A stretch of DNA of 64,000 bases from a virus, in the IMG/VR virus record IMGVR_UViG_3300017963_000239, positions 17,880 to 81,879 of that record; one strand, given 5' to 3'. Shown here piece by piece: positions 335 through 22,908 of this stretch (position 1 is its first letter; each line of letters begins with the position of its first letter). The position numbers were made by a program, and so were the translations under genes. The notes below the pieces were generated by a model. It worked only from the letters and a program-made list of their open reading frames with translations. It was not told the origin of the DNA and made no database searches.

Positions 335-375
335 GTGGTCGTAGCTCAATCGGTAGAGCGTCTGGATGTGGCCCA
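335..375 (+). pseudogene. 5' fragment of disrupted resident tRNA-His(GTG)
   Basis: GTGGTCG-TAGCTCAATCGGTAGAGC-G-TCTGG-ATGTGGC, then breaks off; matching 3' piece at 884-910. Confidence 0.8.
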
Positions 376-395
376 AAAGTGTTAGGCTCACAACC

Positions 396-824
396 ATGCC
401 AGCGAAGACCAAGAAGTGTGGGAAGTGCCAGAAGCGCAAGCCTGTGGATCAGTTTTACTGGAAGGACAAGGCGCGGGGGACGAGGCATTCGTACTGCAGG
501 GCGTGTTTCGCCGCGCGCCACAAGACTTACTACCAGGAGAACAAGCAGTACTACTTGGAGAAGAAGGCGCGCTGCAAGCAGAGGCTCCGCGAGTATGTGA
601 ACGAACTGAAGCGCGCGCCGTGTACGGACTGTGGCCGGACGTACCCGCCCTACGTGATGGACTTTGATCACTTGAATGGGGAGGAGAAGGGGGGCCTCGT
701 GGCGCATTTGGTGGCGCAGGGGCAGGTTCGGAGAGCCAAAGAAGAGATAGCTAAGTGCGAGCTGGTATGCGCCAACTGTCACAGGATCAGAACGCACGAA
801 AGACGTATGGAGGTCGTAGCCTAA
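396..824 (+). CDS. HNH endonuclease with Zn-finger motifs (His cassette)
   Basis: CxxC motifs, DFDHL...KCELVCANCHRIRT; stop codon lies within the following tRNA-His. Confidence 0.85.
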   Translation: MPAKTKKCGKCQKRKPVDQFYWKDKARGTRHSYCRACFAARHKTYYQENKQYYLEKKARCKQRLREYVNELKRAPCTDCGRTYPPYVMDFDHLNGEEKGGLVAHLVAQGQVRRAKEEIAKCELVCANCHRIRTHERRMEVVA

Positions 825-881
825 CGGTTAAGGCACAGGATTGTGGCTCCTGGTATGCCGGTTCGATTCCGGTCGATCTCC
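809..881 (+). tRNA. tRNA-His(GTG), replacement copy
   Basis: G-1:C73; GAGGTCG/CGATCTC acceptor; CAGGA-TTGTGGC-TCCTG. Confidence 0.9.
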
Positions 882-883
882 CC

Positions 884-910
884 GGTGGTCGAGTCCGCTC
901 GGTCACCCCA
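884..910 (+). pseudogene. 3' fragment (T arm, acceptor strand, CCA) of resident tRNA-His
   Basis: GGTGG-TCGAGT-CCGCT-CGGTCAC-C-CCA; CGGTCAC pairs with GTGGTCG at 335. Confidence 0.75.
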
Positions 911-993
911 CTACGCCCCTGGAGCCGGGTACTCCGGCGGGGCCAACAAGGAGAAGAAGAGAGACAAGGGTGTGGCAACCCAGGCAGGTAGCC

Positions 994-2151
994 ATGAACA
1001 AGGTACACGTGAACGTCGGAACCATCGGACACATCGACCATGGGAAGACGACCCTCACCGCGGCGATCACCAAGGTGATGGCGGAGCTTCACGGTGGGAA
1101 GGTGGTCCCCTTCAACAAGATCGACAACGCACCGGAAGAGCAGAAGCGCGGCGTGACCATCAACACGTCGCACGTGGAGTACGAGTCGGCGACGCGGCAC
1201 TACGCGCACGTCGACTGTCCGGGGCACGCTGACTACATCAAGAACATGATCACCGGTGCGGCCCAGATGGACGGCGCGGTGCTTCTGGTCGATGGGTCGC
1301 AGGGTCCGCAGGTGCAGACCAAGGAGCACATCCTGCTTGCGAAGCAGGTGGGTGTGGAGAGGATGGTGGTGTTCATCAACAAGGTGGACATCGCAGACCC
1401 CGAGCTGCTGGAGTTGGTCGCCTTGGAGACGGCCGAGCATCTGGAGGCGCAGGGATACGAGGACTCTCCGGTGGTCCAGGGCTCCGCTCTGAAGGCTCTG
1501 GAGGGCTCTGAGACGGGCTGCATCGTCGAGCTGGTCGAAGCCATGGACAGGCACTTCCCGGACCCTGTGAGGGACTTCGAGGCGCCTTTCATGCTGCCTA
1601 TCGAGGGAGTCCACACCATCGAAGGCCGCGGCACTGTGGTCACCGGTCGTGTGGAGCGTGGTGTGTTGCCTCTCGGGGCGACGGTCGAGATCATCGGTCT
1701 GGTGGACGAGGACTCCAAGCCTCGCCAGGTCGTGGTCACGGGCATCCAGATGTTCCACAAGGACCAACCCGAAGCGCGGGCCGGAGAGAACTGTGGCCTG
1801 TTGCTGCGCGGTGTTCGTCGGGACGAGGTGGTTCGGGGTCAGGTGCTCATCGTGCCGGGCTCCGTGCGGTCTCACATGAAGGCGAAGGCCGAGCTGTTCG
1901 TGTTGTCGAAGGAGGACGGGGGTCGGCACACTCCGATCTTCAAGGGCTACCGCCCACAGTTCTTCTTCGGCACGACCAACGTCACGGGCACCGTGGCGGA
2001 CATCGGCGAGCTGGACTTGGTCAAGCCTGGCGAGCACGCCGAAGTAGCGCTGGAGTTGCAGAAGCCTGTCGGCATGGAAGCTGGCATGCGATTCGCTGTT
2101 CGTGAGAGCAGCAAGACCGTCGCTGCAGGTGTGGTCCTCAGCGTCACGTAG
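994..2151 (+). CDS. tuf: Elongation factor Tu
   Basis: [61 protein letters not shown]. Confidence 0.95.
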
Positions 2152-2183
2152 AACGGGCAGGCCGGTCCCGCAAACCGGCCATT

Positions 2184-2260
2184 GGGGATGTGGTGCAGTC
2201 GCGTAGCACACTTGCCTGTCACGCAAGAGGTCGCGGGTTCAAGTCCCGTCATCCCCGCCA
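2184..2260 (+). tRNA. tRNA-Asp(GTC)
   Basis: CTTGC-CTGTCAC-GCAAG; encoded CCA. Confidence 0.9.
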
Positions 2261-2289
2261 AGCGCCCATCGGATCAGATCAAACAAGCA

Positions 2290-2362
2290 TCCTACGTAGC
2301 TCAGATGGTAGAGCAGCGGCCTCTCAAGCCGCCGGCCATGGGTTCAATTCCCATCGCGGGTA
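2290..2362 (+). tRNA. tRNA-Glu(CTC), imperfect acceptor stem
   Basis: GCGGC-CTCTCAA-GCCGC; D and T arms intact; two acceptor mismatches. Confidence 0.65.
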
Positions 2363-2398
2363 ACACAACATGATCTTTTCACTCGGGCGCCCATTTTT

Positions 2399-2935
2399 CT
2401 AGGGCTCGTGACATCCTCGGCACCTCGCCTCGTAGGACTCGGCGCCGCCGACTTTCACTTGTTCTTCACCATGCACGAGCCTCTGGGTTCGACTGGCTTC
2501 CTTGCCGCACCGGGAGCACACAGCGCGTACTTTGGTCACGGTTTCAGCGATGGCCATCAACTCAGGGACAGGGTGGAAGGGGCGCCCCTGAAAGTCTTGG
2601 TCTAGGCCGGCGACGATGACGCGGTAGCCCTTGTCTGCCAGGATGTTGATTCCATCGATCATGTCGTTGTCGAAGAACTGCGCTTCGTCGATGGCTACGA
2701 CGTCGGTCTCAGGCTTGACGCGACGAATGAGATCGTAGCTCGAAGCCACTGGCTCGGCTTCGATGTCGATCCCTTGGTGGCTTACGATCTTCTCTTTGGC
2801 GTAGCGGTCGTCAACGGACGGCTTGAACGCCTGAACGGTTTGCTTCGCGAACAGGGCTCGGCGCACGCGGCGGATCAACTCTTCGGTTTTGCCGCTGAAC
2901 ATCGAGCCCACAACAACTTCAACATGTCCTGACAT
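2399..2935 (-). CDS. tdk: Thymidine kinase
   Basis: [29 protein letters not shown]-terminal Zn motifs and YEARCR. Confidence 0.95.
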
Positions 2936-2940
2936 GTTCT

Positions 2941-3014
2941 AGGGGTATAGCTCAGCTAGGGAGAGCAGCGGATTCCAAATCCGCAGGTCGGGAGTTCGAT
3001 TCTCTCTGCCCCTG
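2941..3014 (+). tRNA. tRNA-Trp(CCA)
   Basis: GCGGA-TTCCAAA-TCCGC; full cloverleaf. Confidence 0.9.
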
Positions 3015-3018
3015 CTAC

Positions 3019-3068
3019 GGGCCAGTAGCTCAGTAGGTTAGAGCGTCCGCCTGATAAGCGGGAGGTCG
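3019..3068 (+). pseudogene. Truncated resident tRNA-Ile(GAT) lacking T arm and 3' acceptor strand
   Basis: GGGCCAG-TAGCTCAGTAGGTTAGAGC-G-TCCGC-CTGATAA-GCGGG-AGGTCG, then non-tRNA sequence. Confidence 0.8.
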
Positions 3069-3093
3069 TTTATTCTAACCTGGACAATTTCTT

Positions 3094-3165
3094 GGACTGC
3101 AATGCTCTGGTTGAGCTACGATGCCTGATAAGCATCGTGGCGGGGTCCAATTCCCCGGCGGTCCA
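3094..3165 (+). tRNA. Atypical tRNA-Ile(GAT), replacement copy
   Basis: GGACTGC/GCGGTCC acceptor; GATGC-CTGATAA-GCATC; T loop TCCAATT; A at position 8. Confidence 0.75.
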
Positions 3166-3168
3166 CCG

Positions 3169-3744
3169 ATGAGCAAACAACGCAGGGATTCCCAGGGCCG
3201 TCTTCTTCTAGAATTTCGGTGTCCTTGTGGGAAGAGGTTCTGGGCACGCCCCAGACCTCCGAACAAGTCGGGGAAGCGGTATTGTAGCTTGGTGTGCTAC
3301 GGGAGGCTTAGGGACTTTTCTGGATCTAAAAACCCCAACTGGAGGGGAGGGTCGTTCCAGAGTGGCAAGGGTTACTGGTATGTTCATATGCCAGATCATC
3401 ACCGAGCGATGAAGAATGGCTACGTCAAGAGGGCGGATGTTGTAGCCGAGAAGAAGATCGGGAGGAAGTTGTTGCCTAACGAGGTGGTGCACCACGAAGA
3501 TTCAGATCCGAGCAACGACAGCCTAGACAACCTAGTGGTCAAGGACTCCCTAGCGCATATCAGAGAGCACGCAGTGAAGAGGCGAAAGCCTAAGAAGTCA
3601 AAGAAGGCTCGAAAGTCTGTTTGTTGGCCCTCCGATAGCGTGCTTTTGGAGATGGCTAAGACCATGACACAGCGCCAAATGGCAACGCTTCTTGGGTGCA
3701 GTCAGCCCGCCGTATTCTATCGCCTGCACCGTTCTCGTCGTTGA
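3169..3744 (+). CDS. HNH endonuclease with C-terminal HTH (Ile cassette)
   Basis: NPNWRGG, EVVHHEDSDPSNDSLDNL, TQRQMATLLGCSQPAV. Confidence 0.85.
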   Translation: MSKQRRDSQGRLLLEFRCPCGKRFWARPRPPNKSGKRYCSLVCYGRLRDFSGSKNPNWRGGSFQSGKGYWYVHMPDHHRAMKNGYVKRADVVAEKKIGRKLLPNEVVHHEDSDPSNDSLDNLVVKDSLAHIREHAVKRRKPKKSKKARKSVCWPSDSVLLEMAKTMTQRQMATLLGCSQPAVFYRLHRSRR

Positions 3745-4030
3745 GCCCTGAGCAGCTTCCGCACATCATCTGCGGACCGGCTGCTCAGGACGAGGCGCAG
3801 CTGCGTGGAAAGCTCCCGCATGCGCGCGCAGACGTCGCACTGGCAGCCGGGTTTGGTCTGTTGGTGCTCGTTCCAGATCTTCAGCTCTTGCTCTTCGACG
3901 GCAGTCATGCTGCCATCATGCCTGAGAGCTGAAGCTCATCTTGCACGACGCCGGTCGATTTCCGGCTGGAGGTAGACATGAAGAGGTCGATGCCGCCGTA
4001 GCCCCTCCTTCTGCGTGAAGGAGGTGGCCT

Positions 4031-4132
4031 ATGTGTCGCTACTGCCAAATCGTCTGGTCCCTGCTGGGGCCGGGCTATCTCTGTCGCCCTTGCTGGAGGA
4101 AGAAGTATCGGAATGCGAAGAAGGGTCGGTAA
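4031..4132 (+). CDS. 33-aa basic CxxC-CxxC peptide
   Basis: AAGGAGGT RBS; MCRYCQIVWSLLGPGYLCRPCWRKKYRNAKKGR. Confidence 0.55.
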   Translation: MCRYCQIVWSLLGPGYLCRPCWRKKYRNAKKGR

Positions 4133-4161
4133 GACCGGCTGAGGGCTAGCTGCCCTCACAC

Positions 4162-4191
4162 GGGCCTGTAGCTCAGCTGGGAGAGCGCTTC
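4162..4191 (+). pseudogene. 5' half of disrupted resident tRNA-Ala
   Basis: GGGCCTGTAGCTCAGCTGGGAGAGCGCT identical to the start of intact tRNA-Ala at 5462. Confidence 0.85.
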
Positions 4192-4207
4192 GTGCTACAC
4201 TGGCAAA

Positions 4208-4699
4208 ATGCTGGAAGTGGTTGTGAGGTACGAGAAACCTGGAGATCCGTATGTCCGTGTTCGGCTGTCGGATGGCCGGGTCGTGCGTGAGCACAGGTTC
4301 ATCATGGAGTGCAAGCTAGGTCGGAAGCTCTCCCCTAGCGAGCACGTCCATCATAAGGACTTGAACCCCCGGAACAACGAGGAGAGCAACTTAGAATTGA
4401 AGTCGCGGGCGGATCACTGCCGCCTGCACCGCCCTGTGGCGCGGAAGGTTAGACTGCGCTGTCCTACTTGCGGGTGTTGTTTCGAACGCACTGCCAGGTA
4501 TGTCAGGTCCAAGAAGAAGCTAGGCCAGCACAGTTTCTTCTGCGGTCGTAGCTGCCGGGGACCTAGGGGCGGAGAAACAACACGAAAGGTCACCGCGCAT
4601 GGGTCTCGCGGAGGCTATTTGAGGGGCTGTCGGTGTGCTGAGTGTCGAGAGGCGCAGGCGCACTACATGCGCGAGTACAGATCAAAGGGGCTGTGGTGA
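4208..4699 (+). CDS. HNH endonuclease (Ala-GGC cassette)
   Basis: REHRFIME..LGRKL...EHVHHKDLNPRNNEESNLE; C-terminal HG..GCRC..C module. Confidence 0.9.
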   Translation: MLEVVVRYEKPGDPYVRVRLSDGRVVREHRFIMECKLGRKLSPSEHVHHKDLNPRNNEESNLELKSRADHCRLHRPVARKVRLRCPTCGCCFERTARYVRSKKKLGQHSFFCGRSCRGPRGGETTRKVTAHGSRGGYLRGCRCAECREAQAHYMREYRSKGLW

Positions 4700-4757
4700 A
4701 AGGGGATCACGCAACCATGGCATGGTTGTATTACGGGTTCGAATCCCGTCAGCTCCA
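4687..4757 (+). tRNA. tRNA-Ala(GGC), replacement copy
   Basis: GGGGCTG/CAGCTCC with G3:U70; CAACC-ATGGCAT-GGTTG. Confidence 0.9.
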
Positions 4758-4774
4758 CTAGGGACCTTCCGGTC

Positions 4775-4812
4775 GGCGGGGGTCGGGGGTTCGAGTCCCC
4801 CTAGGTCCACCA
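4775..4812 (+). pseudogene. 3' half of disrupted resident tRNA-Ala
   Basis: GGGTC-GGGGG-TTCGAGT-CCCCC-TAGGTCC-A-CCA; pairs with GGGCCTG at 4162. Confidence 0.85.
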
Positions 4813-4927
4813 TCGGCCCCTCTGAGGGCAGCTTAGGCGTCAGGGCAGCGCGACGAACGACCCAGTACTCGGACAGCTGCAAGTCGAGCTGCGGGGCATC
4901 CTCCTGACGGGAGGCCCCGCCGATGAC

Positions 4928-5143
4928 CTACTTCTTCTCGGGCTCGGCGGTCGCAGCGGCCGACGCGGTGGCGCTGGCTGTCGCTGTGGCGGTCGCCGTA
5001 GCAGTCGCTTCGGCAGTCGCGGTGCTGGTCTCTGCGGCGGCGGTCGACGTCTCCTTGGTGGGGACGGTTTCTTCGGCCTTCTTCTCGTCGCAGGCGGACA
5101 GGAAGCAGATCGCGATCACGAGGGTAGCTGCTAGGGTCTTCAT
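4928..5143 (-). CDS. Small lipoprotein with Ala/Thr-rich tail
   Basis: Signal peptide with lipobox LSAC; ATATAT low-complexity region. Confidence 0.7.
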   Translation of the reverse strand: MKTLAATLVIAICFLSACDEKKAEETVPTKETSTAAAETSTATAEATATATATATASATASAAATAEPEKK

Positions 5144-5280
5144 CGGATTTCTCCTTGCGGTGGAGGTTATACTTCACACCCCGGAGATCGCGCAAAGGGG
5201 ATTGTCAGAGTGGCCATACGTCCATGTGGACGCATACGCCTACTTGACTATCGCTTTTCTATAGGCTAATTCTTGAGCCC

Positions 5281-5460
5281 ATGGCGACGAAGAAGGTGAT
5301 TGTCGACTTCGACGAGGACATCCAGAACCTGCGCGACCCCGAGACAGGCCGTTATGTCGAGCTGAACTCCGTTGTGGGAGCCAAGGTCGTAGGGGTGGAG
5401 CGGGGTGAGGACGACCAGCTCGTGTTGATCCTCGAAGGGGTCGAAGACGAAGAAGACTGA
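5281..5460 (+). CDS. Hypothetical acidic 59-aa protein
   Basis: Open frame with genome-typical codons behind a TTGACT promoter-like motif. Confidence 0.6.
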   Translation: MATKKVIVDFDEDIQNLRDPETGRYVELNSVVGAKVVGVERGEDDQLVLILEGVEDEED

Positions 5461-5461
5461 C

Positions 5462-5537
5462 GGGCCTGTAGCTCAGCTGGGAGAGCGCTGCGTTCGCAAT
5501 GCAGAGGTCAGGGGTTCGATTCCCCTCAGGTCCACCA
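5462..5537 (+). tRNA. tRNA-Ala(CGC)
   Basis: CTGCG-TTCGCAA-TGCAG; G3:U70; CCA. Confidence 0.9.
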
Positions 5538-5630
5538 GCTCCGGAGCCAAGTCTGTGGGCTCAGTAGCTACACGCGGAGTGACGCCCGCAGCCGGAGTTA
5601 GGAGCCTCGCCAGCGCAGCGCGGCTCTGTT

Positions 5631-5660
5631 GGGCTCATAGCTCAGATGGGAGAGCGCGGC
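5631..5660 (+). pseudogene. 5' half of disrupted resident tRNA-Ala(TGC)
   Basis: GGGCTCA-TAGCTCAGATGGGAGAGC-G-CGGC. Confidence 0.85.
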
Positions 5661-5698
5661 ATATTGCAACTGGAGATCGTCGCTGATACTGTACCTGT

Positions 5699-6088
5699 AT
5701 GGGGTACAAGTTCGTTAAGGCTCCCTCTAGCTATCCGGGCAGAACGTATCGCTGGGGCAACCGAGTTCTGGAGCACCACTTGGTATGGTGGGAGAACACA
5801 GGACAGGTCGTTCCGGAAGGGTACGTTGTTCACCATCTGAATGAAGACAAGGAGGACAATCGTTTCGGGAACCTCGCGCTGAAGAAGCGTGGGGAGCACA
5901 CAACGGATCACCAATTGAAGGATCCGCCTGTGGCGTTGGTGTGCTCTTGGTGCGGGAAGAAGATCGAACGTAGCTCTAGAGATGTTCGAAGCAAACGCAA
6001 GCAAGGGCAGAGTCGTTTCTTCTGTTGTTCCGCTCACGCAGCCGCTGCGGGTTGGTCGAGCAGAAGAGCGAGAGGGGTCATCGTCTAA
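5699..6088 (+). CDS. HNH endonuclease (Ala-TGC cassette)
   Basis: LEHHLVWW...VVHHLNEDKEDNRFGNL; CxxC...FFCC. Confidence 0.9.
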   Translation: MGYKFVKAPSSYPGRTYRWGNRVLEHHLVWWENTGQVVPEGYVVHHLNEDKEDNRFGNLALKKRGEHTTDHQLKDPPVALVCSWCGKKIERSSRDVRSKRKQGQSRFFCCSAHAAAAGWSSRRARGVIV

Positions 6089-6145
6089 TCGGGAGGACGC
6101 TAGCCTTGCACGCTGGTAATACGGGTTCGAGTCCCGTTGGCTCCA
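6074..6145 (+). tRNA. tRNA-Ala(TGC), replacement copy
   Basis: GGGGTCA/TGGCTCC; CTAGC-CTTGCAC-GCTGG. Confidence 0.9.
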
Positions 6146-6250
6146 CTGCGGCAACGTGTGGTCGTCCGCAGGGCTTGACCCGTCCCTGCTAAGTGATCAC
6201 GCAAGATCCCTAACGGGTCGCACAAAGCCGGAAGGCGTGGGGACGCCGCG

Positions 6251-6296
6251 CCTTGCAAGCCTGAGGTCGGGAGTTCGATCCTCCCTGAGTCCACCA
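6251..6296 (+). pseudogene. 3' half of disrupted resident tRNA-Ala(TGC)
   Basis: CCTTGCAA-GCCTG-AGGTC-GGGAG-TTCGATC-CTCCC-TGAGTCC-ACCA; TGAGTCC pairs with GGGCTCA at 5631. Confidence 0.9.
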
Positions 6297-6743
6297 ATGC
6301 AGACGTTCCTACCCTTTCCGGACTTTCAGAGATCTGCCTCTGTGCTCGACTGGCGGCGTCTGGGCAAGCAGCGCATCGAGGCGAGGCACATCGTGGAGGT
6401 GCTTCTAGGCATCAAGCCTCACAGTCGTTACCGGAACCACGCGGCGGTCCGCATGTGGCGAGGCTTCGGACACTTCTTGTGTTCCTACGGCGTCGCCATC
6501 TGCCAGGAGTGGCGTGGGCGTGGCTACCGAGATCAGCAGCTCGAAGCCTTCCAACGCCTGCGGAAGCTCGCCGAGCGCGAGGATCAACACGGAACGCCGC
6601 CTTGGTTTGGAGACGCTGCGTTCCACGCGGCGCACCGAGCTGCTTTGCTCGCCAAGGCTCCGGAGTGGTACGGCCAATTCGGATGGCAGGAGATCCCGCT
6701 CGTGGACTACGTGTGGCCTGCCGGTGTAGCCTATGGCGCATGA
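6297..6743 (+). CDS. Pyrimidine-dimer DNA glycosylase-like (MSMEG_6728 family) protein
   Basis: MQTFLP.PDF..SA..LD.RRLGKQR.EA, HAAVRMWRG, PPWFG...FH..HR..LL.K.P.WY. Confidence 0.8.
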   Translation: MQTFLPFPDFQRSASVLDWRRLGKQRIEARHIVEVLLGIKPHSRYRNHAAVRMWRGFGHFLCSYGVAICQEWRGRGYRDQQLEAFQRLRKLAEREDQHGTPPWFGDAAFHAAHRAALLAKAPEWYGQFGWQEIPLVDYVWPAGVAYGA

Positions 6744-7648: not shown

Positions 7649-7655
7649 ACGAAGT

Positions 7656-7733
7656 GCCGCTGTAGCTCAGTTCTGGCAGAGCACAGTCTTGGTAAGACTG
7701 GGGTCATCGGTTCGACTCCGATCAGCGGCTCCA
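7656..7733 (+). tRNA. tRNA-Thr(GGT)
   Basis: CAGTC-TTGGTAA-GACTG; CCA. Confidence 0.9.
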
Positions 7734-7736
7734 CAT

Positions 7737-7811
7737 GCGGGTGTAGTTCAGGGGTAGAACGTCAGCTTCCCAAGCTGAATGTCGTCGGTTCAAATCCGAT
7801 CATCCGCTCCA
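7737..7811 (+). tRNA. tRNA-Gly(CCC)
   Basis: TCAGC-TTCCCAA-GCTGA; U73; CCA. Confidence 0.9.
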
Positions 7812-7815
7812 ACTT

Positions 7816-7887
7816 GCGGGCATAGCCAAGTGGTAAGGCCGTGGGTTTCCAACCCACCATTCGCCGGTTCGAATCCGGCTGTCCGCT
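7816..7887 (+). tRNA. tRNA-Gly(TCC)
   Basis: GTGGG-TTTCCAA-CCCAC. Confidence 0.9.
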
Positions 7888-15606: not shown

Positions 15607-15846
15607 ATGGCCGGGGTTAAGTTGGTTCTCAGGTACGAGGATCATGAGGTTCATACGGAGGTGCCTCTTCGAGTGGACCTCCCCGAGATGATCCGAAGGT
15701 CACGGTTGAAGGCAGGCGTTCAGGTCTCTACCGAGGTGGGGTTCCAGCTTTTTCGAGAACTGGAGGAGTCGCTGGAGCACCATCGGATTCTTCATCGCAT
15801 GTCGGAGAGTCTGGTCGCCAAGGTCGCGGATGGAAGCGACCCGTAG
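15607..15846 (+). CDS. Hypothetical protein
   Basis: ORF. Confidence 0.5.
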   Translation: MAGVKLVLRYEDHEVHTEVPLRVDLPEMIRRSRLKAGVQVSTEVGFQLFRELEESLEHHRILHRMSESLVAKVADGSDP

Positions 15847-15861
15847 TAGAAAGGAGCGGTC

Positions 15862-16431
15862 ATGTCGTTTCTCGGGATCTCTCTGCCAGCGGACGTCTGC
15901 CGCCTGTTTCGGGACATCAACTGCCCCGGCAACAAGGTGGACATGGGGACCTACCACATCACGATGCTGTACATCGGGGACAAGACCCCCATCAGCGTCG
16001 TGACCAAGGCCATCGAGGTGGCCGCCCCCGTCATGCAGCAGACGCGGCCCTTCGACCTGCAGGTCCGGAAGATTGGCCACTTCCCCGAGAACCCCGACGA
16101 CCGGCCCGGACACCCCATCATCGCGAGGGTCGACAGCCCGATGCTCCACGAGCTTCGCGGTGAGCTGGCGCAGGCGTTCGACGATCGGGAAGTGCCCTAC
16201 TCGAAGAAGTTCCCCGACTTCAATCCGCACGTGACGCTCTCGTACAGCCCCGAACCGTTCGAGACGGAGCTGGAAGAGCCCATCAAGTGGACGTGCAGTG
16301 AGACGGTGCTGTGGGCCGGCGACGACTACGGTGATCGGTTCATCGTGACCTTCCAACTGCCGCGGGAAGGTCCGAAGTACGAGGGGTTCGAGCAGTTCGA
16401 GCACGAGATCAGAGCGCTGCTCAATTCCTAG
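15862..16431 (+). CDS. 2H phosphoesterase (2'-5' RNA ligase / Acb1-like fold)
   Basis: Two HxT motifs: YHITMLY and FNPHVTLSY; AAGGAG RBS. Confidence 0.85.
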   Translation: MSFLGISLPADVCRLFRDINCPGNKVDMGTYHITMLYIGDKTPISVVTKAIEVAAPVMQQTRPFDLQVRKIGHFPENPDDRPGHPIIARVDSPMLHELRGELAQAFDDREVPYSKKFPDFNPHVTLSYSPEPFETELEEPIKWTCSETVLWAGDDYGDRFIVTFQLPREGPKYEGFEQFEHEIRALLNS

Positions 16432-16440
16432 GGCAGCTTT

Positions 16441-16517
16441 GCGCGGGTAGCCCAACTGGCAGAGGCGCCAGATTTAGGATCTGGTTAGTGCGGGTTCGAC
16501 TCCCGCTCCGCGTACCA
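16441..16517 (+). tRNA. tRNA-Leu(TAG), short variable loop
   Basis: CCAGA-TTTAGGA-TCTGG-TTAGT; CCA. Confidence 0.85.
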
Positions 16518-16564
16518 GAGGGGATTTCTCTTGCGAGCTGAACGCGTCTACTTAGACTGGGTTC

Positions 16565-16861
16565 ATGCCGCCGAGCAAGAACCCTTCTTCTCCTTCTTTG
16601 GCGGCGGTCCGTTCTGAGGAGCCCCGGCTTGACCCCAACGCGCTGGACGTGTTGGTGAAGAAGCTGAGCGCCAAGACCGAAGTCACCAACCGGACCGTGG
16701 AGCAGATCTCCGAGCATCTGTCGGAGCAAGCTGTCCTGTTGCGGTCGATGCGGCACGACTTGGGGGTCATGGGGGCTCAGGTCGACAAGGTTGCTCGGGA
16801 CCAGAGCGTGATCAAAGATCTGCTCGCCGATGTCTTATCTCGGCTTCCCAGCAACGACTAG
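16565..16861 (+). CDS. Coiled-coil hypothetical protein
   Basis: TAGACT-N6-ATG; heptad pattern. Confidence 0.6.
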   Translation: MPPSKNPSSPSLAAVRSEEPRLDPNALDVLVKKLSAKTEVTNRTVEQISEHLSEQAVLLRSMRHDLGVMGAQVDKVARDQSVIKDLLADVLSRLPSND

Positions 16862-16867
16862 GCACTT

Positions 16868-16950
16868 GCCGGGGTGGCGGAATGCAGACGCAGTCGGCTT
16901 AAAACCGACCGCCGCAAGGCGTGAGGGTTCAAGTCCCTCCCTCGGCACCA
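16868..16950 (+). tRNA. tRNA-Leu(TAA)
   Basis: GTCGG-CTTAAAA-CCGAC; long variable arm; CCA. Confidence 0.9.
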
Positions 16951-16988
16951 TCGTTGACTATCTGGCGCCTACCTGATAGTGTCTCTGG

Positions 16989-17423
16989 GTGGCCAAGAAG
17001 CAGAGAGCGTTCGATCTTTTCGAAGAGGCCATGCGGGAGGCGCGTGCGCAGGGCATCAAGATCGTGCGCCAGCCGATGTTCGACTGGACAGGTCTTGGAG
17101 AGGACCGGAGCAAGCCGAAGGCGTGTGACGCGACGGGCGCGATGCTCATCAAGATGGGCTACGGCCGAAGCGAGTACACGTACAACGGCAAGACGGAGGT
17201 GTACGGCAGCGGAGAGGTTCGGCCGAAGGGCTGGCCGTTGTTGGTGCAGAAGCACTTGGGCGTTGGGGTGTGGTGGCTCTGGTGTTTCTGGATGGGCTGG
17301 GACTACGGCAATCAGATCCAGGTCGCGGAGACGAACGACAACGGCGACGTGGTTGGGTGGCGAGATGAAGAAGTCAGCAAAGCGGCGATCAAGCTCGCCA
17401 AGAAGTGGGTTCGGCGCCTCTAA
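16989..17423 (+). CDS. Hypothetical protein
   Basis: TTGACT-N17-TAGTGT-N6-GTG; stop inside next tRNA. Confidence 0.7.
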   Translation: MAKKQRAFDLFEEAMREARAQGIKIVRQPMFDWTGLGEDRSKPKACDATGAMLIKMGYGRSEYTYNGKTEVYGSGEVRPKGWPLLVQKHLGVGVWWLWCFWMGWDYGNQIQVAETNDNGDVVGWRDEEVSKAAIKLAKKWVRRL

Positions 17424-17490
17424 CTCAAGTGGTCAGAGTACCCGCCTCATAAGCGGGTAGTTCAGGGTTCGAACCCCTGGGGGCGCACCA
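17414..17490 (+). tRNA. tRNA with CAT anticodon (likely Ile2)
   Basis: CCCGC-CTCATAA-GCGGG; CCA. Confidence 0.85.
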
Positions 17491-17635
17491 TGAAGAAGGG
17501 TTGGAGGAAGAAGACGTGGAGGAAGCAGATCAACTGGTTGTTCAGGTACGTTCGGTGGCGGGTGTGCGGGAGTCCTGAGCCCGAGTTCTGCACCTGCTTG
17601 GACCCGTGGACTTGCGGTAAGCCGCACAGGGCGTG

Positions 17636-18109
17636 ATGAAGATCGTGTTCTTGGACTTCGATGGGGTCATCAACAGCTCCATCTTCTTCAACAAGCGCAA
17701 GCTCGACGAGTCGTTGCGCATGAGCAGTCCCGAGTGGTGGGCTGAGATGATCGACCCCGAGCCTGTGGCGCTGCTCAATCAGATCTTGGACCAGACAGGC
17801 GCGAAGGTGGTCATCTCGTCGACCTGGCGGTTCGCGAACACGTGGGAGGAGTTGCAGGAGATCTTGGAGGTGCGCGGTTTCACCGGAGAGGTCATCGGTG
17901 CGACGAAGAAGATGGACGCCGAAGATCGATGGGTGAAGATTCAGATGTGGCTGGACGAGTCGTCAGAGCCCGTCGAGTCGTTCGTCATCCTTGATGACCT
18001 CGAAACGATGGGAGACCTACAGCACCGTTTGGTGCACACGCACATGAGGTACGGTCTGAAGAAGAAGCATGTGAAGGCGGCCGTGAGGCTGCTGAACAAG
18101 AGCGCGTAG
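17636..18109 (+). CDS. HAD-family phosphatase (Swiss-Army-Knife RNA-repair-like)
   Basis: FLDFDGVIN, VVISSTWR, FVILDD. Confidence 0.85.
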   Translation: MKIVFLDFDGVINSSIFFNKRKLDESLRMSSPEWWAEMIDPEPVALLNQILDQTGAKVVISSTWRFANTWEELQEILEVRGFTGEVIGATKKMDAEDRWVKIQMWLDESSEPVESFVILDDLETMGDLQHRLVHTHMRYGLKKKHVKAAVRLLNKSA

Positions 18110-18171
18110 CTCAGTGGGAGAGCACTACCCTGACACGGTAGGGGTCGGAGGTTCAAATCCTCTCGCGCTCA
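18100..18171 (+). tRNA. tRNA-Val(GAC)
   Basis: CTACC-CTGACAC-GGTAG. Confidence 0.9.
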
Positions 18172-18184
18172 CCGAAAGGAACAT

Positions 18185-18269
18185 GCACAGGTGGCGGAAC
18201 TAGGCAGACGCGCGGGCTTCAGGTGCCCGTACCCTTCGGGGTGTGAGGGTTCGATTCCCTCTCTGTGCA
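18185..18269 (+). tRNA. tRNA-Leu(CAG)
   Basis: CGGGC-TTCAGGT-GCCCG; long variable arm. Confidence 0.9.
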
Positions 18270-18351
18270 CCGCTGGTCGAGGACAGCAGTCCGGGGAAAG
18301 CCTGGTGAGAGAAGCAGGCCCACGGAAGGCGAAGCCTGCCGACCAGCATTC

Positions 18352-18440
18352 GCGAACGTGGCGGAATTTTGGTAGACGCGCAGGCTTGAGGTGCCTGTGG
18401 CCCACTAGTGGCTGTGAGGGTTCGATTCCCTCCGTTCGCA
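18352..18440 (+). tRNA. tRNA-Leu(GAG)
   Basis: CAGGC-TTGAGGT-GCCTG; long variable arm. Confidence 0.9.
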
Positions 18441-18507
18441 CTGCTTCTTCGGAAGCGTGGTGGAGCCGCCGACCGGGCTTACCCCCGGTCGGCCCTTTTT
18501 CACCTCC

Positions 18508-18853
18508 GGGCTCGATCGGTTTCGACGTGGAGGAAAGGAAAGATTCGCGTGTAGGCAGCGCTCGACCTGCCTTGATCAATCGAGCAATTTGCAGTTGCCA
18601 ACGACAACAGCACCCCTCTGGCCGCGAAGGCGGCCTGAGCGCTGGGCGGGTAGGAGTCCGAGTACCCCGCAGGCGCCAATACCACACGGACTGTGCTCGG
18701 GGAGGTTGGCACCGCCGATGCCCGAGCGAGACTTTCGGTGCTGGACAGGCTGGAGAGACGGCCAAGCCCTGCTGTGAGGGTAGATCAGCTACGCACGTGA
18801 ACGAGGATCTTGACGGAACTCGGCGGACCAGGGTTCGATTCCCTGCGGGTCCA
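18508..18853 (+). ncRNA. ssrA: tmRNA; tag (A)NDNSTPLAAKAA at 18597-18638
   Basis: 5' GGGCTCGATCGGTTTCGAC; 3' GGGTTCGATTCCC...GGGTCCA with G3:U70; ANDN...AA reading frame. Confidence 0.92.
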
Positions 18854-18906
18854 CGAAGTCTCCATTGAGCATTGCAGGGAGCGTCCATAAGAGGTACATT
18901 GGTCGA

Positions 18907-19518
18907 ATGGCTCTTGTGGACGTGACCTGCGCTCAATGCGGGAAGAAGGTGAAGAAGCCGGTGGGAGAGGTGAACAGGTCGGTCAGGCTAGGGCGCAAGT
19001 TTTTCTGTGGCTCTGTCTGTTCCGGGTTGTTCAGCGGACAAGCTCGGGCTGCGGTGGAGGTCAAGAAGACGTGCCCTCATTGTGGGGAGGACTTCGTGAC
19101 GACGACCAAAGCACGAGCCAAGAAGTTCTGTTCTAGATCCTGTGCCAGTAAGGGGAGCATGTCCGAAGAGCGCCGGGAGGCGCAGCGTCTGGCGGGCCTC
19201 GCGCACGCGCAGAATCTTCTTTCCCCTGCGGAGACCTTGAAGCAGCGCGAAGCCTGGAAGTACGCAGCGCTGGAGAAGGTGTTGCGGGAGGCGGATCGGG
19301 ACTTCGAGTTCGAGTATCAGGTCGGTGGGTTCGTGTTCGACCTGGCTCTTTTGGACGAGAAGGTTCTGGTAGAGTTCGACGGCCCTCACCATCGAGGGGA
19401 CGAAGCAGAACGAGACAAGCACAAGGAGAAGATGGCGAAGAAACGAGGATTCGTCGTGGTCCGTCGAGAAGTAAAGGCGGCCTCGGTGATTTCCCCAGAC
19501 ACGATCAAGGAACTCTAG
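18907..19518 (+). CDS. Zn-finger plus DUF559/Vsr-like endonuclease (tmRNA cassette)
   Basis: CxxC/FCS repeats; FEYQVGGFVFDLAL...VEFDGPHH...D..K. Confidence 0.75.
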   Translation: MALVDVTCAQCGKKVKKPVGEVNRSVRLGRKFFCGSVCSGLFSGQARAAVEVKKTCPHCGEDFVTTTKARAKKFCSRSCASKGSMSEERREAQRLAGLAHAQNLLSPAETLKQREAWKYAALEKVLREADRDFEFEYQVGGFVFDLALLDEKVLVEFDGPHHRGDEAERDKHKEKMAKKRGFVVVRREVKAASVISPDTIKEL

Positions 19519-19546
19519 TGGGGTTCGATTCCCCGCAGGTCCACCA
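19518..19546 (+). pseudogene. Orphan 3' end (T arm, acceptor strand, CCA) of a tmRNA/Ala-type RNA
   Basis: GTGGGG-TTCGATT-CCCCG-CAGGTCC-ACCA, a variant of 18828-18853. Confidence 0.8.
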
Positions 19547-19590
19547 CGGTTCTCTCGACGCGGCACCGAAGCCGCAGAGAGGCAGACATC

Positions 19591-19914
19591 ATGAAGCGAG
19601 AGTACAACACAGGACAGCACGTCATCTTCGTCGATCCTCACGGCATTCGACGGGACGCGCTCGTCACCATCTGGCACTGCACCGACAACCGCGAGGCTTG
19701 GTTGGAATCTCAACAGGTCAACCGGGAGTCGTGGGCCAAGCAGGATCCCCCGGTCGATGTGCCGGTGACAGAGACCTGCTGCAACTTGGTCTGGGTCAGC
19801 GGAGACGAGAAGCGGACGGACTCCTACGGTCGTCAGATCGTTCGAGAGTCGTCGGTAGTCCACAAGGGCAGCCAGCCTGCCCACGGGAACTACTGGCTCT
19901 GGCCTGACGAGTAG
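19591..19914 (+). CDS. Hypothetical protein
   Basis: ORF with GAGG RBS. Confidence 0.65.
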   Translation: MKREYNTGQHVIFVDPHGIRRDALVTIWHCTDNREAWLESQQVNRESWAKQDPPVDVPVTETCCNLVWVSGDEKRTDSYGRQIVRESSVVHKGSQPAHGNYWLWPDE

Positions 19915-20045
19915 TCGAGCTTGACTGCCAGGCCGGAACCGCGCAGGAACCGGAAGGCTGTTTCGATGTCGCGTCGAGAGGATCGATCAAGCCGAGACGC
20001 GTTGATCTGTGGCGTTATTGGCAGACACGTGATAGCTTAAAGACT

Positions 20046-20132
20046 GCCCGGATGCTGGAATTGGTTTACAGGCCGGTTTCAAAAACCGGTGTCCTCCGGG
20101 GCATGAGGGTTCGACTCCCTCTCCGGGCACCA
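20046..20132 (+). tRNA. tRNA-Leu(CAA)
   Basis: CCGGT-TTCAAAA-ACCGG; long variable arm; CCA. Confidence 0.9.
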
Positions 20133-20133
20133 G

Positions 20134-20682
20134 ATGTTCAACCCCTACGATAAGGAGATCAAGAAGGTCTATGGGCCGTACATGCGTTCTTACCCTCGGG
20201 GGGTGTCAAGGCGGCAAGTTGTGATCTGTTTCGAGGACGGTTCGCGAACAACAATGTCGTACTCCCGATGGTTGATGACACAGCACTTGGGCCGGGCTCT
20301 CGGCGGTGGCGAACATGTAGATCACGAGAACGAGGACCCGCAGGATGACAGGATCGAGAACTTGCAGTTGCTGTCTCCTGGCGAGAATGCGGCGAAGTCG
20401 AATCGGTCACGCCCGTCCCCTTTGAAGGGTGTGGAGAAGGGTTGGTCACATGGGACGGTCTACGGTTGGATGAAGAAGAAGTGCTCGTGTGGGGAGTGTT
20501 CAGCCGCTAAGCGGCGCTGGTTGGACGCTCGCAACGAGGCGCGTCGTGGAGGGGGCGAGGGGCGCAGTTATCAGAAGGCTGTGCATGGTTCCCGGTCGAT
20601 GTACCGGAAGGGTTGTAGGTGCCCCTTGTGTCGTCAGGCTCAGACTGAGTATGCCCGCGAGTACAGGAATCGCAGAAGATGA
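20134..20682 (+). CDS. HNH endonuclease (Leu-CAA cassette)
   Basis: HLGRAL..EHVDHENEDPQDDRIENLQ; two HG..C.C..C modules. Confidence 0.85.
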   Translation: MFNPYDKEIKKVYGPYMRSYPRGVSRRQVVICFEDGSRTTMSYSRWLMTQHLGRALGGGEHVDHENEDPQDDRIENLQLLSPGENAAKSNRSRPSPLKGVEKGWSHGTVYGWMKKKCSCGECSAAKRRWLDARNEARRGGGEGRSYQKAVHGSRSMYRKGCRCPLCRQAQTEYAREYRNRRR

Positions 20683-20972
20683 GCGCAGTCGCAGCATACG
20701 CGAGGAGATACCGGGAGGACGCTTTGCCTTCGCGCCAGCAGATTCCTCCGACGTGCGACCCCCGATGGGAGCGCTGGTGCGCTCCCCTGCTGGAGTTCAT
20801 CCGGCAGTCTCCGCGGACGTGGGAGGACTTGCGCGTGTGGGAGAAGGAGAACAGCATTCGGCCGTCGCTTCTTCTGCAGATGCTCTGCTGGCTTGAGTTC
20901 AATCACCGCGTGGTTGCGGTGACAGAAGGCGGACCCGTTCTGTGGTGCGCCGCAAGGAGAGATCCGAAATGA
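20679..20972 (+). CDS. Hypothetical protein
   Basis: ATGA overlap. Confidence 0.55.
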   Translation: MSAVAAYARRYREDALPSRQQIPPTCDPRWERWCAPLLEFIRQSPRTWEDLRVWEKENSIRPSLLLQMLCWLEFNHRVVAVTEGGPVLWCAARRDPK

Positions 20973-20993
20973 CATGGAAGCAATGAAGGTGAG

Positions 20994-22244
20994 GTGATCA
21001 AGATGACTAGGAGAACATTGAAGCTGACGAGTTGGTACATGCCGATCCAGATCATGTCCTGGCAGGACGCGATCAGCGACGTGTACTTGGGTAGGGTGGT
21101 TCCGGTCGTGGACTACGACGCGGAGGTCCGCTCGCCTTCCACCGTGATGAAGATTCCGGCGGTGGTCCGCATTCCGCGCGCCACGGGAACCATCAAGCGA
21201 GGCATCAAGTTCTCCAAGCTCAACGTGGCAGCTCGGGACCAGTACCGCTGTCAGTACTGTTTGTCTCCAGATCACAGGGTGCTTACGGCGGGGCTGCGGT
21301 GGGTTTCTCTGGGTGACCTAGGTGTTGGAGATCAACTCGTAGGGTTCGATGAAAGCGCGGGGTATGGGATGCTTCGACGCTTCAAGACCTCAGTCGTGGA
21401 GGAGATCAGGCTTACGAGGGCTCCGTTGTTTCGTGTGGTTTTGGACGATGGGACTGTCTTCAGAGCTACGATCGACCACCGCTGGTTGGTGTACAAGTCG
21501 CAGGCGCTTCGTTGGAGAACCACGAAACAGCTCAAGCCTGGTCGCAGAGTTCCTCGTTTGTTTGACCTGTGGTCAGATCTAACAAGTTGGGATGCTGGGT
21601 GGCTGGCCGGCATGTTCGACGGAGAGGGGTGGTTGGAGACAACGACTAACCTCGGTATTGCAGTAGGGCAGAACCCTGGATACTGCTACGATCGCATAAG
21701 CGCGCTAGTCGCCGTTTTCGGTTTCGACTATTCCTCGACTCAGGTGAATACCGACAGGGACTGTCACCGTCTACGTATCCTTGGGGCGGCTTCGGACAAA
21801 TCCAGGTTTCTTGGCAGTGTTCGGCCTCGGAGGTTGTTGGATCAGTTTCGCCCTGAGATGCTGGGAGCCCTCCGCGCTCGGTCGGTTGCCGCTGTGGAAT
21901 GTGTTGAGTCTGCCGGGTCTGGGGAGATTGTAGAAATACGGACTTCTACGGGGACGCTGGTGGTGGAGGGTTTCCCCCATCACAACTGCCTGACGAAGCT
22001 GCCGGTCTCGAAGATCACCTACGACCACGTGTTCCCAAAGTCCCGCGGAGGCGAGACGACGTGGGACAACGTGGTGAGCGCGTGCTCCGAGTGCAACTCG
22101 CGTAAGGACAACAAGACGCCGGAAGAGGCGGGCATGCGGCTGCACACCGTGCCTCGGCGTCCGCACTCGCTGCCGGTCGAGCCGCTGCGGTTGAAGGACA
22201 TGCCTGGCATTCCTGAGCAGTGGCTGGAGTTCGCTGTAGCGTAG
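20994..22244 (+). CDS. McrA-like HNH endonuclease containing an intein
   Basis: RDQYRCQY-[intein]-CLTK...TYDHVFPKSRGG.TTWDNVV.AC..CN..K. Confidence 0.85.
   Translation: MIKMTRRTLKLTSWYMPIQIMSWQDAISDVYLGRVVPVVDYDAEVRSPSTVMKIPAVVRIPRATGTIKRGIKFSKLNVAARDQYRCQYCLSPDHRVLTAGLRWVSLGDLGVGDQLVGFDESAGYGMLRRFKTSVVEEIRLTRAPLFRVVLDDGTVFRATIDHRWLVYKSQALRWRTTKQLKPGRRVPRLFDLWSDLTSWDAGWLAGMFDGEGWLETTTNLGIAVGQNPGYCYDRISALVAVFGFDYSSTQVNTDRDCHRLRILGAASDKSRFLGSVRPRRLLDQFRPEMLGALRARSVAAVECVESAGSGEIVEIRTSTGTLVVEGFPHHNCLTKLPVSKITYDHVFPKSRGGETTWDNVVSACSECNSRKDNKTPEEAGMRLHTVPRRPHSLPVEPLRLKDMPGIPEQWLEFAVA
21258..21986 (+). mobile_element. Intein with LAGLIDADG-type endonuclease
   Basis: C1 CLSPDHRVLT, T..H block B (TIDHRW), WLAGMFDGEG, terminal HHN followed by Cys. 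Confidence 0.9.
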
Positions 22245-22275
22245 CTCGTGGCCCCGGAGCGAAACGGGGCAACCA

Positions 22276-22305
22276 CGGGATGTGGCCTAGTCTGGTTAAG
22301 GCGCC
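22276..22305 (+). pseudogene. 5' half of disrupted resident tRNA-Pro
   Basis: CGGGATG-TGGCCTAGTCTGGTTAAGGC-GCC, then breaks off. Confidence 0.8.
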
Positions 22306-22331
22306 AAGCTTTTGCTAGGCTAGGCTACATC

Positions 22332-22841
22332 ATGTGGAAGCTGCGGGGTCGGAAGCGGGAGAGTAAAGGGCTGTCAGGGTACGAAACAGTCTGTCTTCCG
22401 GAGCACCCGAAGGCGGACGGTCGTGGTCGTGTGTATCTCCATAGGGTTCTGATGGAGAACCACTTAGGGCGCGTGTTAGGGGAAGATGAAGTTGTCCATC
22501 ACAAGAATGGTGACCCCCGAGACAATAGGATCAAAAATTTGGAGATCCTATCGAGAGTGGACCATGCCGCGTTCCACGGGAAAGCCCGACGCGGTCGGGT
22601 CGAAGAGTGCGAGTGCGCGAATTGTGGGACTCGGTTTGAGCGCCTTCGGAGGAAGCTTCAGGGGCAGCGAACCTTTTGCAGTAGGCGCTGTGTGATGCTT
22701 TTCTACAAGCCCCGGCCGCCTCGTACACCGAGGGTCGTAGAGCACGGCACGAACTCCATGTACAAGAACCACGGCTGTCGCTGTTTTGACTGCCGCCGTG
22801 CTCATGCCGAGGCCATGAAGTCGTACAGAAACGGGGTGTAG
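22332..22841 (+). CDS. HNH endonuclease (Pro-GGG cassette)
   Basis: LHRVLMENHLGR.L..DEVVHHKNGDPRDNRIKNLE; HG..GCRC..C module. Confidence 0.9.
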   Translation: MWKLRGRKRESKGLSGYETVCLPEHPKADGRGRVYLHRVLMENHLGRVLGEDEVVHHKNGDPRDNRIKNLEILSRVDHAAFHGKARRGRVEECECANCGTRFERLRRKLQGQRTFCSRRCVMLFYKPRPPRTPRVVEHGTNSMYKNHGCRCFDCRRAHAEAMKSYRNGV

Positions 22842-22908
22842 TTCAGCTTGGAAGAACGCCGCGCTGGGGGCGCGGAGGCCGGAGGTTCAAATCCTCTCAT
22901 CCCGACCA
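22832..22908 (+). tRNA. tRNA-Pro(GGG), replacement/restored copy
   Basis: CCGCG-CTGGGGG-CGCGG; CCA. Confidence 0.9.

Follow-up and report, generated by a model that had tools for sequence, protein, structure and literature searches.

What does it mean for a nuclease gene to lack a stop codon of its own and to end, instead, within the transfer RNA (tRNA) gene that follows it? This question is raised several times over by a virus record in IMG/VR, IMGVR_UViG_3300017963_000239, in which open reading frames (ORFs) for HNH-family nucleases sit among the genes of a long tRNA array. The window, meaning the whole stretch of 64,000 nucleotides (nt) analyzed here, covers bases 17880–81879 of this 81,879-base pair (bp) record, and all coordinates refer to the window unless they are marked as contig coordinates. 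The record is linear, has 61% G+C, and is 54% complete as judged by CheckV, and the virus occurs in samples from sediment, seawater, and wetland. A sequence-only reading of the window had proposed that the overlap of nuclease and tRNA locks a toxic enzyme to its rescue and that tRNA maturation, by removing the stop codon, dampens synthesis of the nuclease with the help of transfer-messenger RNA (tmRNA). We arrive at a different emphasis. It is likely, in our judgment, that free-standing HNH homing endonucleases colonized the tRNA operon of a large phage and that flush junctions, embedded stop codons, and co-conversion units are what this colonization left behind.

Nuclease Reading Frames That Stop inside tRNA Genes

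The five HNH ORFs that had been reported to end inside downstream tRNAs of the window do so, with overlaps of 10–15 nt. ARAGORN and Infernal place the 5′ ends of these tRNAs identically, and all RF00005 matches of the overlapped tRNAs begin at model position 1. The five pairs are listed here with the source of each assignment.

366–824, plus strand: HNH ORF, 152 amino acids (aa); stop TAA at tRNA-His positions 13–15; PHROG HNH match, E value 6e-33
810–883, plus strand: tRNA-His(gtg), intact; ARAGORN; RF00005, 62.1 bits
4208–4699, plus strand: HNH_3 ORF, 163 aa; stop TGA at tRNA-Ala(ggc) positions 11–13, 13 nt overlap; Pfam
4687–4758, plus strand: tRNA-Ala(ggc) with a noncanonical D arm; ARAGORN; RF00005, 57.3 bits
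5699–6088, plus strand: HNH_3 ORF, 129 aa; stop TAA at tRNA-Ala(tgc) positions 13–15, 15 nt overlap; Pfam
6074–6146, plus strand: tRNA-Ala(tgc), intact, with an altered D stem; ARAGORN; RF00005, 58.9 bits
13192–13710, plus strand: HNH_3 ORF, 172 aa; stop TAG at tRNA-Arg(ccg) positions 8–10, 10 nt overlap; Pfam
13701–13774, plus strand: tRNA-Arg(ccg); ARAGORN; RF00005, 59.5 bits
22248–22841, plus strand: HNH_3 ORF, 197 aa from the first GTG; stop TAG at tRNA-Pro(ggg) positions 8–10, 10 nt overlap; Pfam
22832–22908, plus strand: tRNA-Pro(ggg); ARAGORN; RF00005, 60.4 bits

The overlap at tRNA-His amounts to 15 nt, or 16 nt if the encoded G−1 at position 809 is counted, and the true start of the ORF at 22248 is probably the ATG at 22332. 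Three further HNH/tRNA overlaps are found in the same contig upstream of the window, at tRNA-Tyr (32 nt), tRNA-Lys(ctt) (10 nt), and tRNA-Arg(cct) (36 nt). The HNH genes are ORFs in their own right, located in the spacers of the tRNA cluster and on the same strand as the tRNAs. None of the overlapping HNH ORFs has an in-frame stop ahead of its tRNA, and the stop codon lies 3′ of the RNase P site at tRNA +1 in all eight cases. The overlapped tRNAs score 57–71 bits in Infernal against a threshold of 29 bits.

A C-terminal motif, HG..Y..GCRC..C...Y.R.YR, recurs in the HNH_3 paralogues and stops 1–4 residues short of the tail encoded by the tRNA. Its Cys/His core (HG..Y..GCRC..C) stands at the ORF end beside the tRNA, is common to the paralogues and their metagenomic homologues, and has no Pfam model; it is carried by the ORFs at 13192–13710, 22332–22841, 4208–4699, and 20134–20682 and by the ORF at contig positions 16286–16834. 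This motif is probably a DNA-binding module. One metagenomic homologue, P0004, has a long C-terminal tail containing ...PVAQP..., as the DNA of a canonical tRNA D arm would encode in one frame, which suggests another read-through into a tRNA. Within the window, an HNH-like ORF in the region 18865–19546 (PHROG E value 7e-10) has its stop at 19518 and is followed 2 nt later by an orphan tRNA 3′ half with CCA at 19521–19546; this region may be a decayed HNH and tRNA unit.

How Often Other Genes Overlap tRNAs

Genome compaction alone could place stop codons inside tRNAs, and the sequence-only reading had itself listed three non-nuclease ORFs, ending at 12966, 17423, and 18109, as showing the same overlap. 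The latter two overlaps are real, at 10 nt each, but the ORF ending at 12966 does not enter an intact tRNA: tRNA-Arg(acg) starts only at 13002, and what the ORF reaches is an orphan fragment.

16989–17423, plus strand: ORF of unknown function, 144 aa, with a G+C content at third codon positions (GC3) of 0.83; stop TAA at tRNA-Met positions 8–10
17414–17490, plus strand: tRNA-Met(cat); ARAGORN; RF00005
17633–18109, plus strand: HAD_SAK_2 ORF (RNA-repair-associated HAD); stop TAG at tRNA-Val(gac) positions 8–10
18100–18173, plus strand: tRNA-Val(gac); ARAGORN; RF00005
12957–12984, plus strand: orphan tRNA 5′ fragment reached by the ORF at 12697–12966; tRNA-half profile search

When overlap is counted for every ORF directly upstream of a tRNA in this contig, 8/9 HNH ORFs overlap as compared with 2/15 other ORFs (Fisher p = 4.9e-4), and the median gap to the tRNA is −13 nt for HNH ORFs versus +7 nt for the others. 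The same trend is seen in relatives, by which we mean 21-kilobase (kb) loci of a huge-phage clade that share an EF-Tu gene and a similar tRNA array, together with loci L001 and L002. Here overlap occurs in 7/14 HNH ORFs and 5/54 other ORFs of at least 100 aa (p = 1.6e-3), and for 13 of the 14 HNH ORFs the distance to the next tRNA lies between −36 and +16 nt. Equal frequencies for all tRNA-adjacent ORFs, the outcome that the sequence-only reading had named as speaking against it, are therefore not what is found, and the overlap exceeds mere compaction.

A wider sample came from 80 unrelated viral loci collected with the HNH_3 profile, among which 15 distinct loci have a same-strand tRNA no more than 1.5 kb downstream. 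In nine of them the HNH ORF is flush with the tRNA, the gaps running from −23 to +9 nt; of these nine, three overlap the tRNA and six end at their own stop 2–9 nt before it. Taking all flush HNH genes together, overlap is found in 8/8 from this contig versus 10/21 elsewhere (p = 0.012), and no association was seen among flush HNH genes between G+C content and ending by overlap or by an own stop. Since many flush HNH genes have a stop of their own, an embedded stop is not required. The robust rule is the flush junction between the HNH ORF and the 5′ end of the tRNA; embedded stops often follow from it and are unusually consistent in this contig.

Putative Broken Targets around the Nuclease Genes

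Profile searches of the nhmmer type with the 5′ and 3′ halves of tRNAs revealed orphan tRNA halves that exactly bracket three of the HNH and tRNA units, those of His, Ala(ggc), and Ala(tgc), and that are of the same isotype as the linked tRNA. The halves at these three sites are listed first, followed by two fragments at other HNH genes.

335–372, plus strand: older tRNA-His 5′ remnant (acceptor strand, D arm, anticodon loop with GTG); nhmmer 5′-half model
884–910, plus strand: degenerate tRNA-His 3′ remnant (T-loop-like, acceptor 3′ strand, C, CCA); pairs 7/7 with the remnant at 335
4162–4206, plus strand: orphan canonical tRNA-Ala 5′ part (acceptor, D arm; CTGGCAA loop-like motif at 4200–4206); half-tRNA profile
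4762–4812, plus strand: orphan tRNA-Ala 3′ part (T arm, acceptor 3′ strand with U70, A, CCA); pairs 7/7 with 4162–4168
5631–5668, plus strand: orphan tRNA-Ala(tgc) 5′ part; half-tRNA profile
6247–6296, plus strand: orphan tRNA-Ala(tgc) 3′ part (anticodon loop CTTGCAA, T arm, acceptor 3′ strand, A, CCA); pairs 7/7 with 5631–5637
13135–13154, plus strand: short tRNA D-arm-like fragment upstream of the HNH ORF at 13192; weak, E value 35
22275–22305, plus strand: orphan tRNA-Pro-like 5′ fragment inside the formal N-terminus of the ORF at 22248; half-tRNA profile

The tRNA-His 5′ remnant coincides with a sub-threshold RF00005 match (335–398, 24.7 bits), and the ATG of the HNH ORF at 366 falls within its anticodon loop. 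Pairing of the orphan acceptor strands is complete (7/7) in the cognate pairs only, with mismatches in every non-cognate combination, and both Ala remnant pairs retain G3:U70. The canonical GCTC D stem is present in 5/6 old fragments versus 0/5 new tRNAs (p = 0.015). Unusual D arms occur in many phage tRNAs, both in the window and in loci L008–L016 (for example, Ala(ggc) of the window, Ala(tgc) of L014, and the Arg(ccg) tRNAs of L012 and L016), and they could represent an escape from nucleases that recognize canonical tRNA genes. Group I introns in split tRNAs were considered and rejected, as no intron family is found at Rfam thresholds and the insert holds a complete second tRNA.

A comparable arrangement is found at a protein-coding gene. 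The HNH ORF at 42533–43567 ends 20 nt inside a putative baseplate ORF, as the sequence-only reading had described, and a remnant of the start of the latter gene lies directly ahead of the nuclease.

42496–42531, plus strand: remnant of a copy of codons 1–12 of the putative baseplate gene; 26/36 nt and 11/12 aa identical to 43548–43583
42533–43567, plus strand: two-repeat HNH endonuclease ORF, 344 aa; PHROG E value 1e-91; no Pfam match
43548–45818, plus strand: 756-aa ORF in the tail/baseplate block, putative baseplate; first codons with low, HNH-like GC3

The start of the putative baseplate gene is duplicated around the HNH gene, with the old copy upstream and a new copy that is synonymously recoded with HNH-like codon usage. 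Local alignment of HNH upstream regions to the downstream target gave a significant duplicate at this gene only (z 6.6), with weak signals for His and Arg(cct); the other remnants came to light through the half-tRNA profiles. The duplicated baseplate start parallels the split-tRNA sites. The cognate remnants around three units, taken with this duplicated start, make nuclease and replacement target look like one mobile unit.

Other features of the HNH genes bear on their mobility. GC3 is 0.68 for the HNH ORFs versus 0.82 for the phage's other genes (p = 3e-5). The corresponding isoacceptor tRNAs of relatives stand behind another tRNA at spacers of 0–26 nt, without room for an ORF, which argues that the HNH genes are insertions into an older, contiguous array. 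For the nearest HNH paralogues, the adjoining tRNAs match in amino acid (Arg/Arg 54%, Ala/Ala, Leu/Leu 51%), and an HNH/tRNA-Ala junction of the window recurs in a related strain from other samples with a single mismatch in 508 nt.

How the Overlaps May Have Arisen and What They May Do

In the explanation that we favor, free-standing HNH homing-endonuclease genes would have colonized the tRNA operon, each one settling immediately next to the 5′ end of a tRNA with no 3′ untranslated region in between. An HNH ORF without its own stop then runs to the first in-frame stop in conserved tRNA nucleotides, for which U8-A9-G10, N13-A14-R15, or later positions would be the donors. Homing logic is most likely the reason for the flush junction: the nuclease gene and an uncut copy of its target would travel as a compact co-conversion unit. 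At some sites this unit would have landed in an earlier tRNA gene of matching isotype, or where the baseplate gene begins, with remnants left on both sides. We take HNH_3, from what is known of I-HmuI-type enzymes, to be a DNA-nicking homing-endonuclease family.

Consequences for expression can be sketched on the same basis. Because ORF and tRNA share DNA, any messenger RNA (mRNA) with the full ORF includes the 5′ part of the tRNA, and the two would have to be co-transcribed. RNase P cuts at tRNA +1, and tmRNA-SmpB rescues ribosomes at a 3′ end that lacks a stop codon. Cleavage by RNase P would take the stop codon away and leave a non-stop message, the products of which would be tagged by tmRNA-SmpB rescue and turned into unstable nuclease fragments; conversely, a ribosome in the act of terminating would hamper folding of the tRNA. 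Processing and rescue together could hold a selfish nuclease at a low dose. We infer this damper on the nuclease from the layout of the genes and consider it plausible, with the tmRNA step as an extension of a known processing idea.

Several observations weigh against colonization by co-conversion units or against parts of it. A near-identical allele without the HNH gene was not found in the contigs of four DNA runs that contain the virus; the joints found there had short sides and came from tRNA genes of other organisms, so the inference of mobility comes from distant relatives only. By alignment and half-tRNA profiles, remnants are weak or limited to the 5′ side for Arg(ccg) and Pro(ggg), and none are seen for Tyr, Lys(ctt), or Arg(cct). 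Some of the remnants may be more than debris and represent independent tRNA-like elements: the element at 4764–4812 folds alone into a 6-bp acceptor helix and a T arm ending in ACCA, and it matches the mascRNA model (32 bits) and the tRNA-like domain of RF00023 (19.8 bits). Excision of the units in silico restores an ARAGORN cloverleaf in 52–57% of constructs, and swapped halves do so in 26–48%, which means that this ARAGORN test is not specific. The overlap counts, for their part, draw on HNH paralogues, which are non-independent samples.

In pure compaction, as a rival account, a stop-less ORF simply runs on neutrally to the next stop and the overlap serves neither regulation nor linkage. 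tRNA genes offer a stop within 10–36 nt in every frame, and the tails that they encode (GLW, P, NGV, GVIV, MEVVA) are unconserved and stand behind a conserved C-terminal motif. General compaction is strong in this array: spacers between neighboring tRNAs are 0–10 nt, non-HNH ORFs with their own stop end 0, 0, 1, 2, 6, 7, and 9 nt ahead of tRNAs, and the two non-nuclease ORFs overlap by 10 nt in the same way as the nucleases. In other phages, about half of the flush HNH genes end at their own stop 0–16 nt before the tRNA. However, neutral run-on leaves unexplained why overlap is significantly commoner in HNH ORFs than in other tRNA-adjacent ORFs, here and in relatives, why the flush HNH genes of this contig exceed those found elsewhere in overlap, and why G+C content does not predict it. 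We regard run-on of this kind as possible but doubtful as the full account.

The model of the sequence-only reading in its full form, an evolved toxin/rescue safety device in which RNase P removes the stop, the phage tmRNA tags the nuclease, and the pair is inseparable, seems to us unlikely. It draws on the position of all eight stops beyond the RNase P site, on the broken same-isotype tRNAs that bracket HNH and tRNA units, on the same processing brake having been proposed for T4 segB, and on a tmRNA gene within the same array.

18508–18856, plus strand: phage tmRNA; ARAGORN, tag ANDNSTPLAAKAA; RF00023, 92 bits; within the tRNA array

The tag ANDNSTPLAAKAA ends in KAA, however, instead of the usual LAA, and tmRNA genes are common in large phages with or without such overlaps, as in mycobacteriophage cluster C and in huge-phage surveys. 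Nontoxic genes (HAD_SAK_2 and the ORF of unknown function) overlap tRNAs likewise, many related HNH genes end at stops of their own, and there is no indication that these nucleases attack tRNA molecules. As for the genetic lock between nuclease and rescue, part of the claim stands: HNH gene and tRNA do look like a unit, on the evidence of the three remnant-flanked sites and the baseplate duplication, but the overlap itself contributes little, as linkage is hardly any tighter with a 10-nt overlap than with a gap of 2 nt.

A bolder version holds that the HNH and tRNA pairs are natural home-and-rescue cassettes, each with a cutter of canonical tRNA genes and a recoded, resistant tRNA. The overlap would then have been selected to make nuclease synthesis and tRNA maturation mutually exclusive, with tmRNA clearing the fragments. 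This too strikes us as improbable. Finally, an annotation artefact, with ORFs that are shorter or decaying or overlapped tRNAs that are pseudogenes, is very unlikely: the T5 tRNA into which hegD extends carries a pseudogene annotation, the HNH ORFs lack obvious Shine-Dalgarno motifs (judged by eye, not quantified), and the formal N-terminus of the ORF at 22248 includes a tRNA fragment, but against this stand the lack of any in-frame stop ahead of the tRNAs, intact HNH and C-terminal Cys/His motifs, tRNA scores far above threshold, and the junction shared with the related strain.

The Array and Its Other Genes

The array comprises 46 plus-strand tRNA genes and the tmRNA, called by ARAGORN between contig positions 5.7 and 47.9 kb. 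Infernal confirms the ARAGORN tRNAs with identical 5′ ends (RF00005) and the tmRNA as well. Also present are an EF-Tu gene, RNA-repair-type genes, and about 16 HNH-family ORFs; the HNH matches of the contig are nine to HNH_3 and about six to HNH. Searching public phage records by megablast with 24 kb of the window gave no match, searches for related loci with single proteins (the HNH ORF at 22248 or the HAD protein) returned few or distant loci only, and a promoter/terminator consensus scan gave counts not above those of shuffles.

The EF-Tu homologue at 841–2151 is full-length (GTP_EFTU, D2, and D3 domains), with a probable start between 884 and 1003, and is kept at 50–78% identity in a clade of large viral contigs of up to 600 kb with similar arrays of 20–43 tRNAs. 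The RNA-repair-type genes lie among the tRNAs at 14485–18109 and 28581–29150 and comprise a metallophosphoesterase, a LigT/2′-5′ RNA ligase-like protein, HAD_SAK_2, and RNase HII. At 10049–10651, several tRNA-like genes cluster on the minus strand, opposite to every other tRNA; ARAGORN gives them odd anticodons (ata, aat, and a 2-nt "anticodon"), and four of them score 46–56 bits in Infernal. A weak tRNA at 3019–3087 (Infernal, 35.9 bits) was missed by ARAGORN. The neighboring tRNA-Ile(gat) at 3094–3167 is an ARAGORN call that Infernal does not support at its gathering threshold, and an HNH ORF (3121–3744) formally begins within it. A near-consensus promoter-like site at 11762–11790 (TTGACA, 17 nt, AACAAT with TG) ends one base 5′ of tRNA-Glu(ctc) at 11791, and a transcript from this site would begin at or within that tRNA.

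Comparison with Known Systems

ORFs that end in tRNAs are already known from T5, with a nearly flush case in T4, and the present locus adds a clear example without introducing a new principle; its split-tRNA context is more unusual than the overlap. In the T5 reference genome, hegC ends 14 nt inside tRNA-Ser2 and hegD 23 nt inside tRNA-Gln2, and another ORF ends 24 nt inside tRNA-Asn. Like the genes described here, hegC and hegD are HNH genes in a tRNA cluster, on the same strand, with 3′ ends inside the next tRNA. Such genes number four or so over some 10 kb in T5, as compared with about 16 HNH-family ORFs in the present contig, eight of which overlap tRNAs. The protein families differ in part, the HNH_3 proteins here carrying the C-terminal HG..Y..GCRC..C motif, and several units here are bracketed by a broken tRNA of the same isotype, a feature that was not looked for in T5. 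In the annotation of a cultured Salmonella phage, an HNH coding sequence overlaps a tRNA-Leu by 38 nt.

T4 SegB is likewise a free-standing homing endonuclease in a tRNA cluster, between tRNA-Ile and tRNA-Arg, and in the current annotation the segB stop falls 5 nt before tRNA-Arg. The enzyme cleaves the tRNA genes of relatives and carries flanking tRNA genes along, and Brok-Volchanskaya et al. (2008) reported that this cleavage drives inheritance of the tRNA region (PMC2330249). The same authors proposed for segB that tRNA processing parts the ORF from its stop and limits expression, and lowered expression through precursor processing was proposed as well for the HNH enzymes of the T5 tRNA region, the F-Tfl enzymes (Akulenko et al., 2004, as cited in PMC2330249). 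In contrast to the genes of the present locus, SegB has a GIY-YIG fold and a stop outside the tRNA, no broken target remnants are described for it, and T4 has no phage tmRNA.

What this locus and its relatives add is that a detail known from single T5 and T4 genes is seen, with statistical support, to be a general rule among large phages from the environment. They also offer a natural, compact case in which nuclease dose control by RNA processing could meet the invasion of essential RNA genes with a replacement copy. If the link to processing and tmRNA holds, phage tmRNAs would gain a concrete class of substrates and phage tRNA arrays would be arenas of nuclease-driven gene exchange.

Parallels exist outside phages for the duplicated targets. 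The atp6 hybrid gene of Allomyces represents the same type of endonuclease-linked duplication. In fungal mitochondria, C-terminal duplications of atp6 and cob are flanked by GIY-YIG and LAGLIDADG ORFs (PMC6279837). As with the baseplate start and the split tRNAs here, the endonuclease ORF carries a piece of the target and the displaced old piece lies beside the hybrid gene; the fungal cases, however, involve the 3′ ends of protein genes with no overlap of a stop and an RNA gene, whereas those described here involve phage tRNA genes and a gene 5′ end. Synthetic home-and-rescue and cleave-and-rescue drives pair a nuclease with a recoded, cleavage-resistant copy of an essential target (PMC7968924). 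These drives use engineered Cas9 in animals, and their likeness to HNH and tRNA units is a functional analogy only, in which the altered D stems suggest that the new tRNAs may resist the linked HNH enzyme. A precedent for a stop codon lost to tRNA excision is the tRNA punctuation of animal mitochondria, where an abutting or overlapping tRNA, once excised, makes the 3′ end of the mRNA and the stop may be lost and completed by polyadenylation. Whereas animal mitochondria restore the stop in this way, the same event in bacteria would yield a non-stop message for tmRNA.

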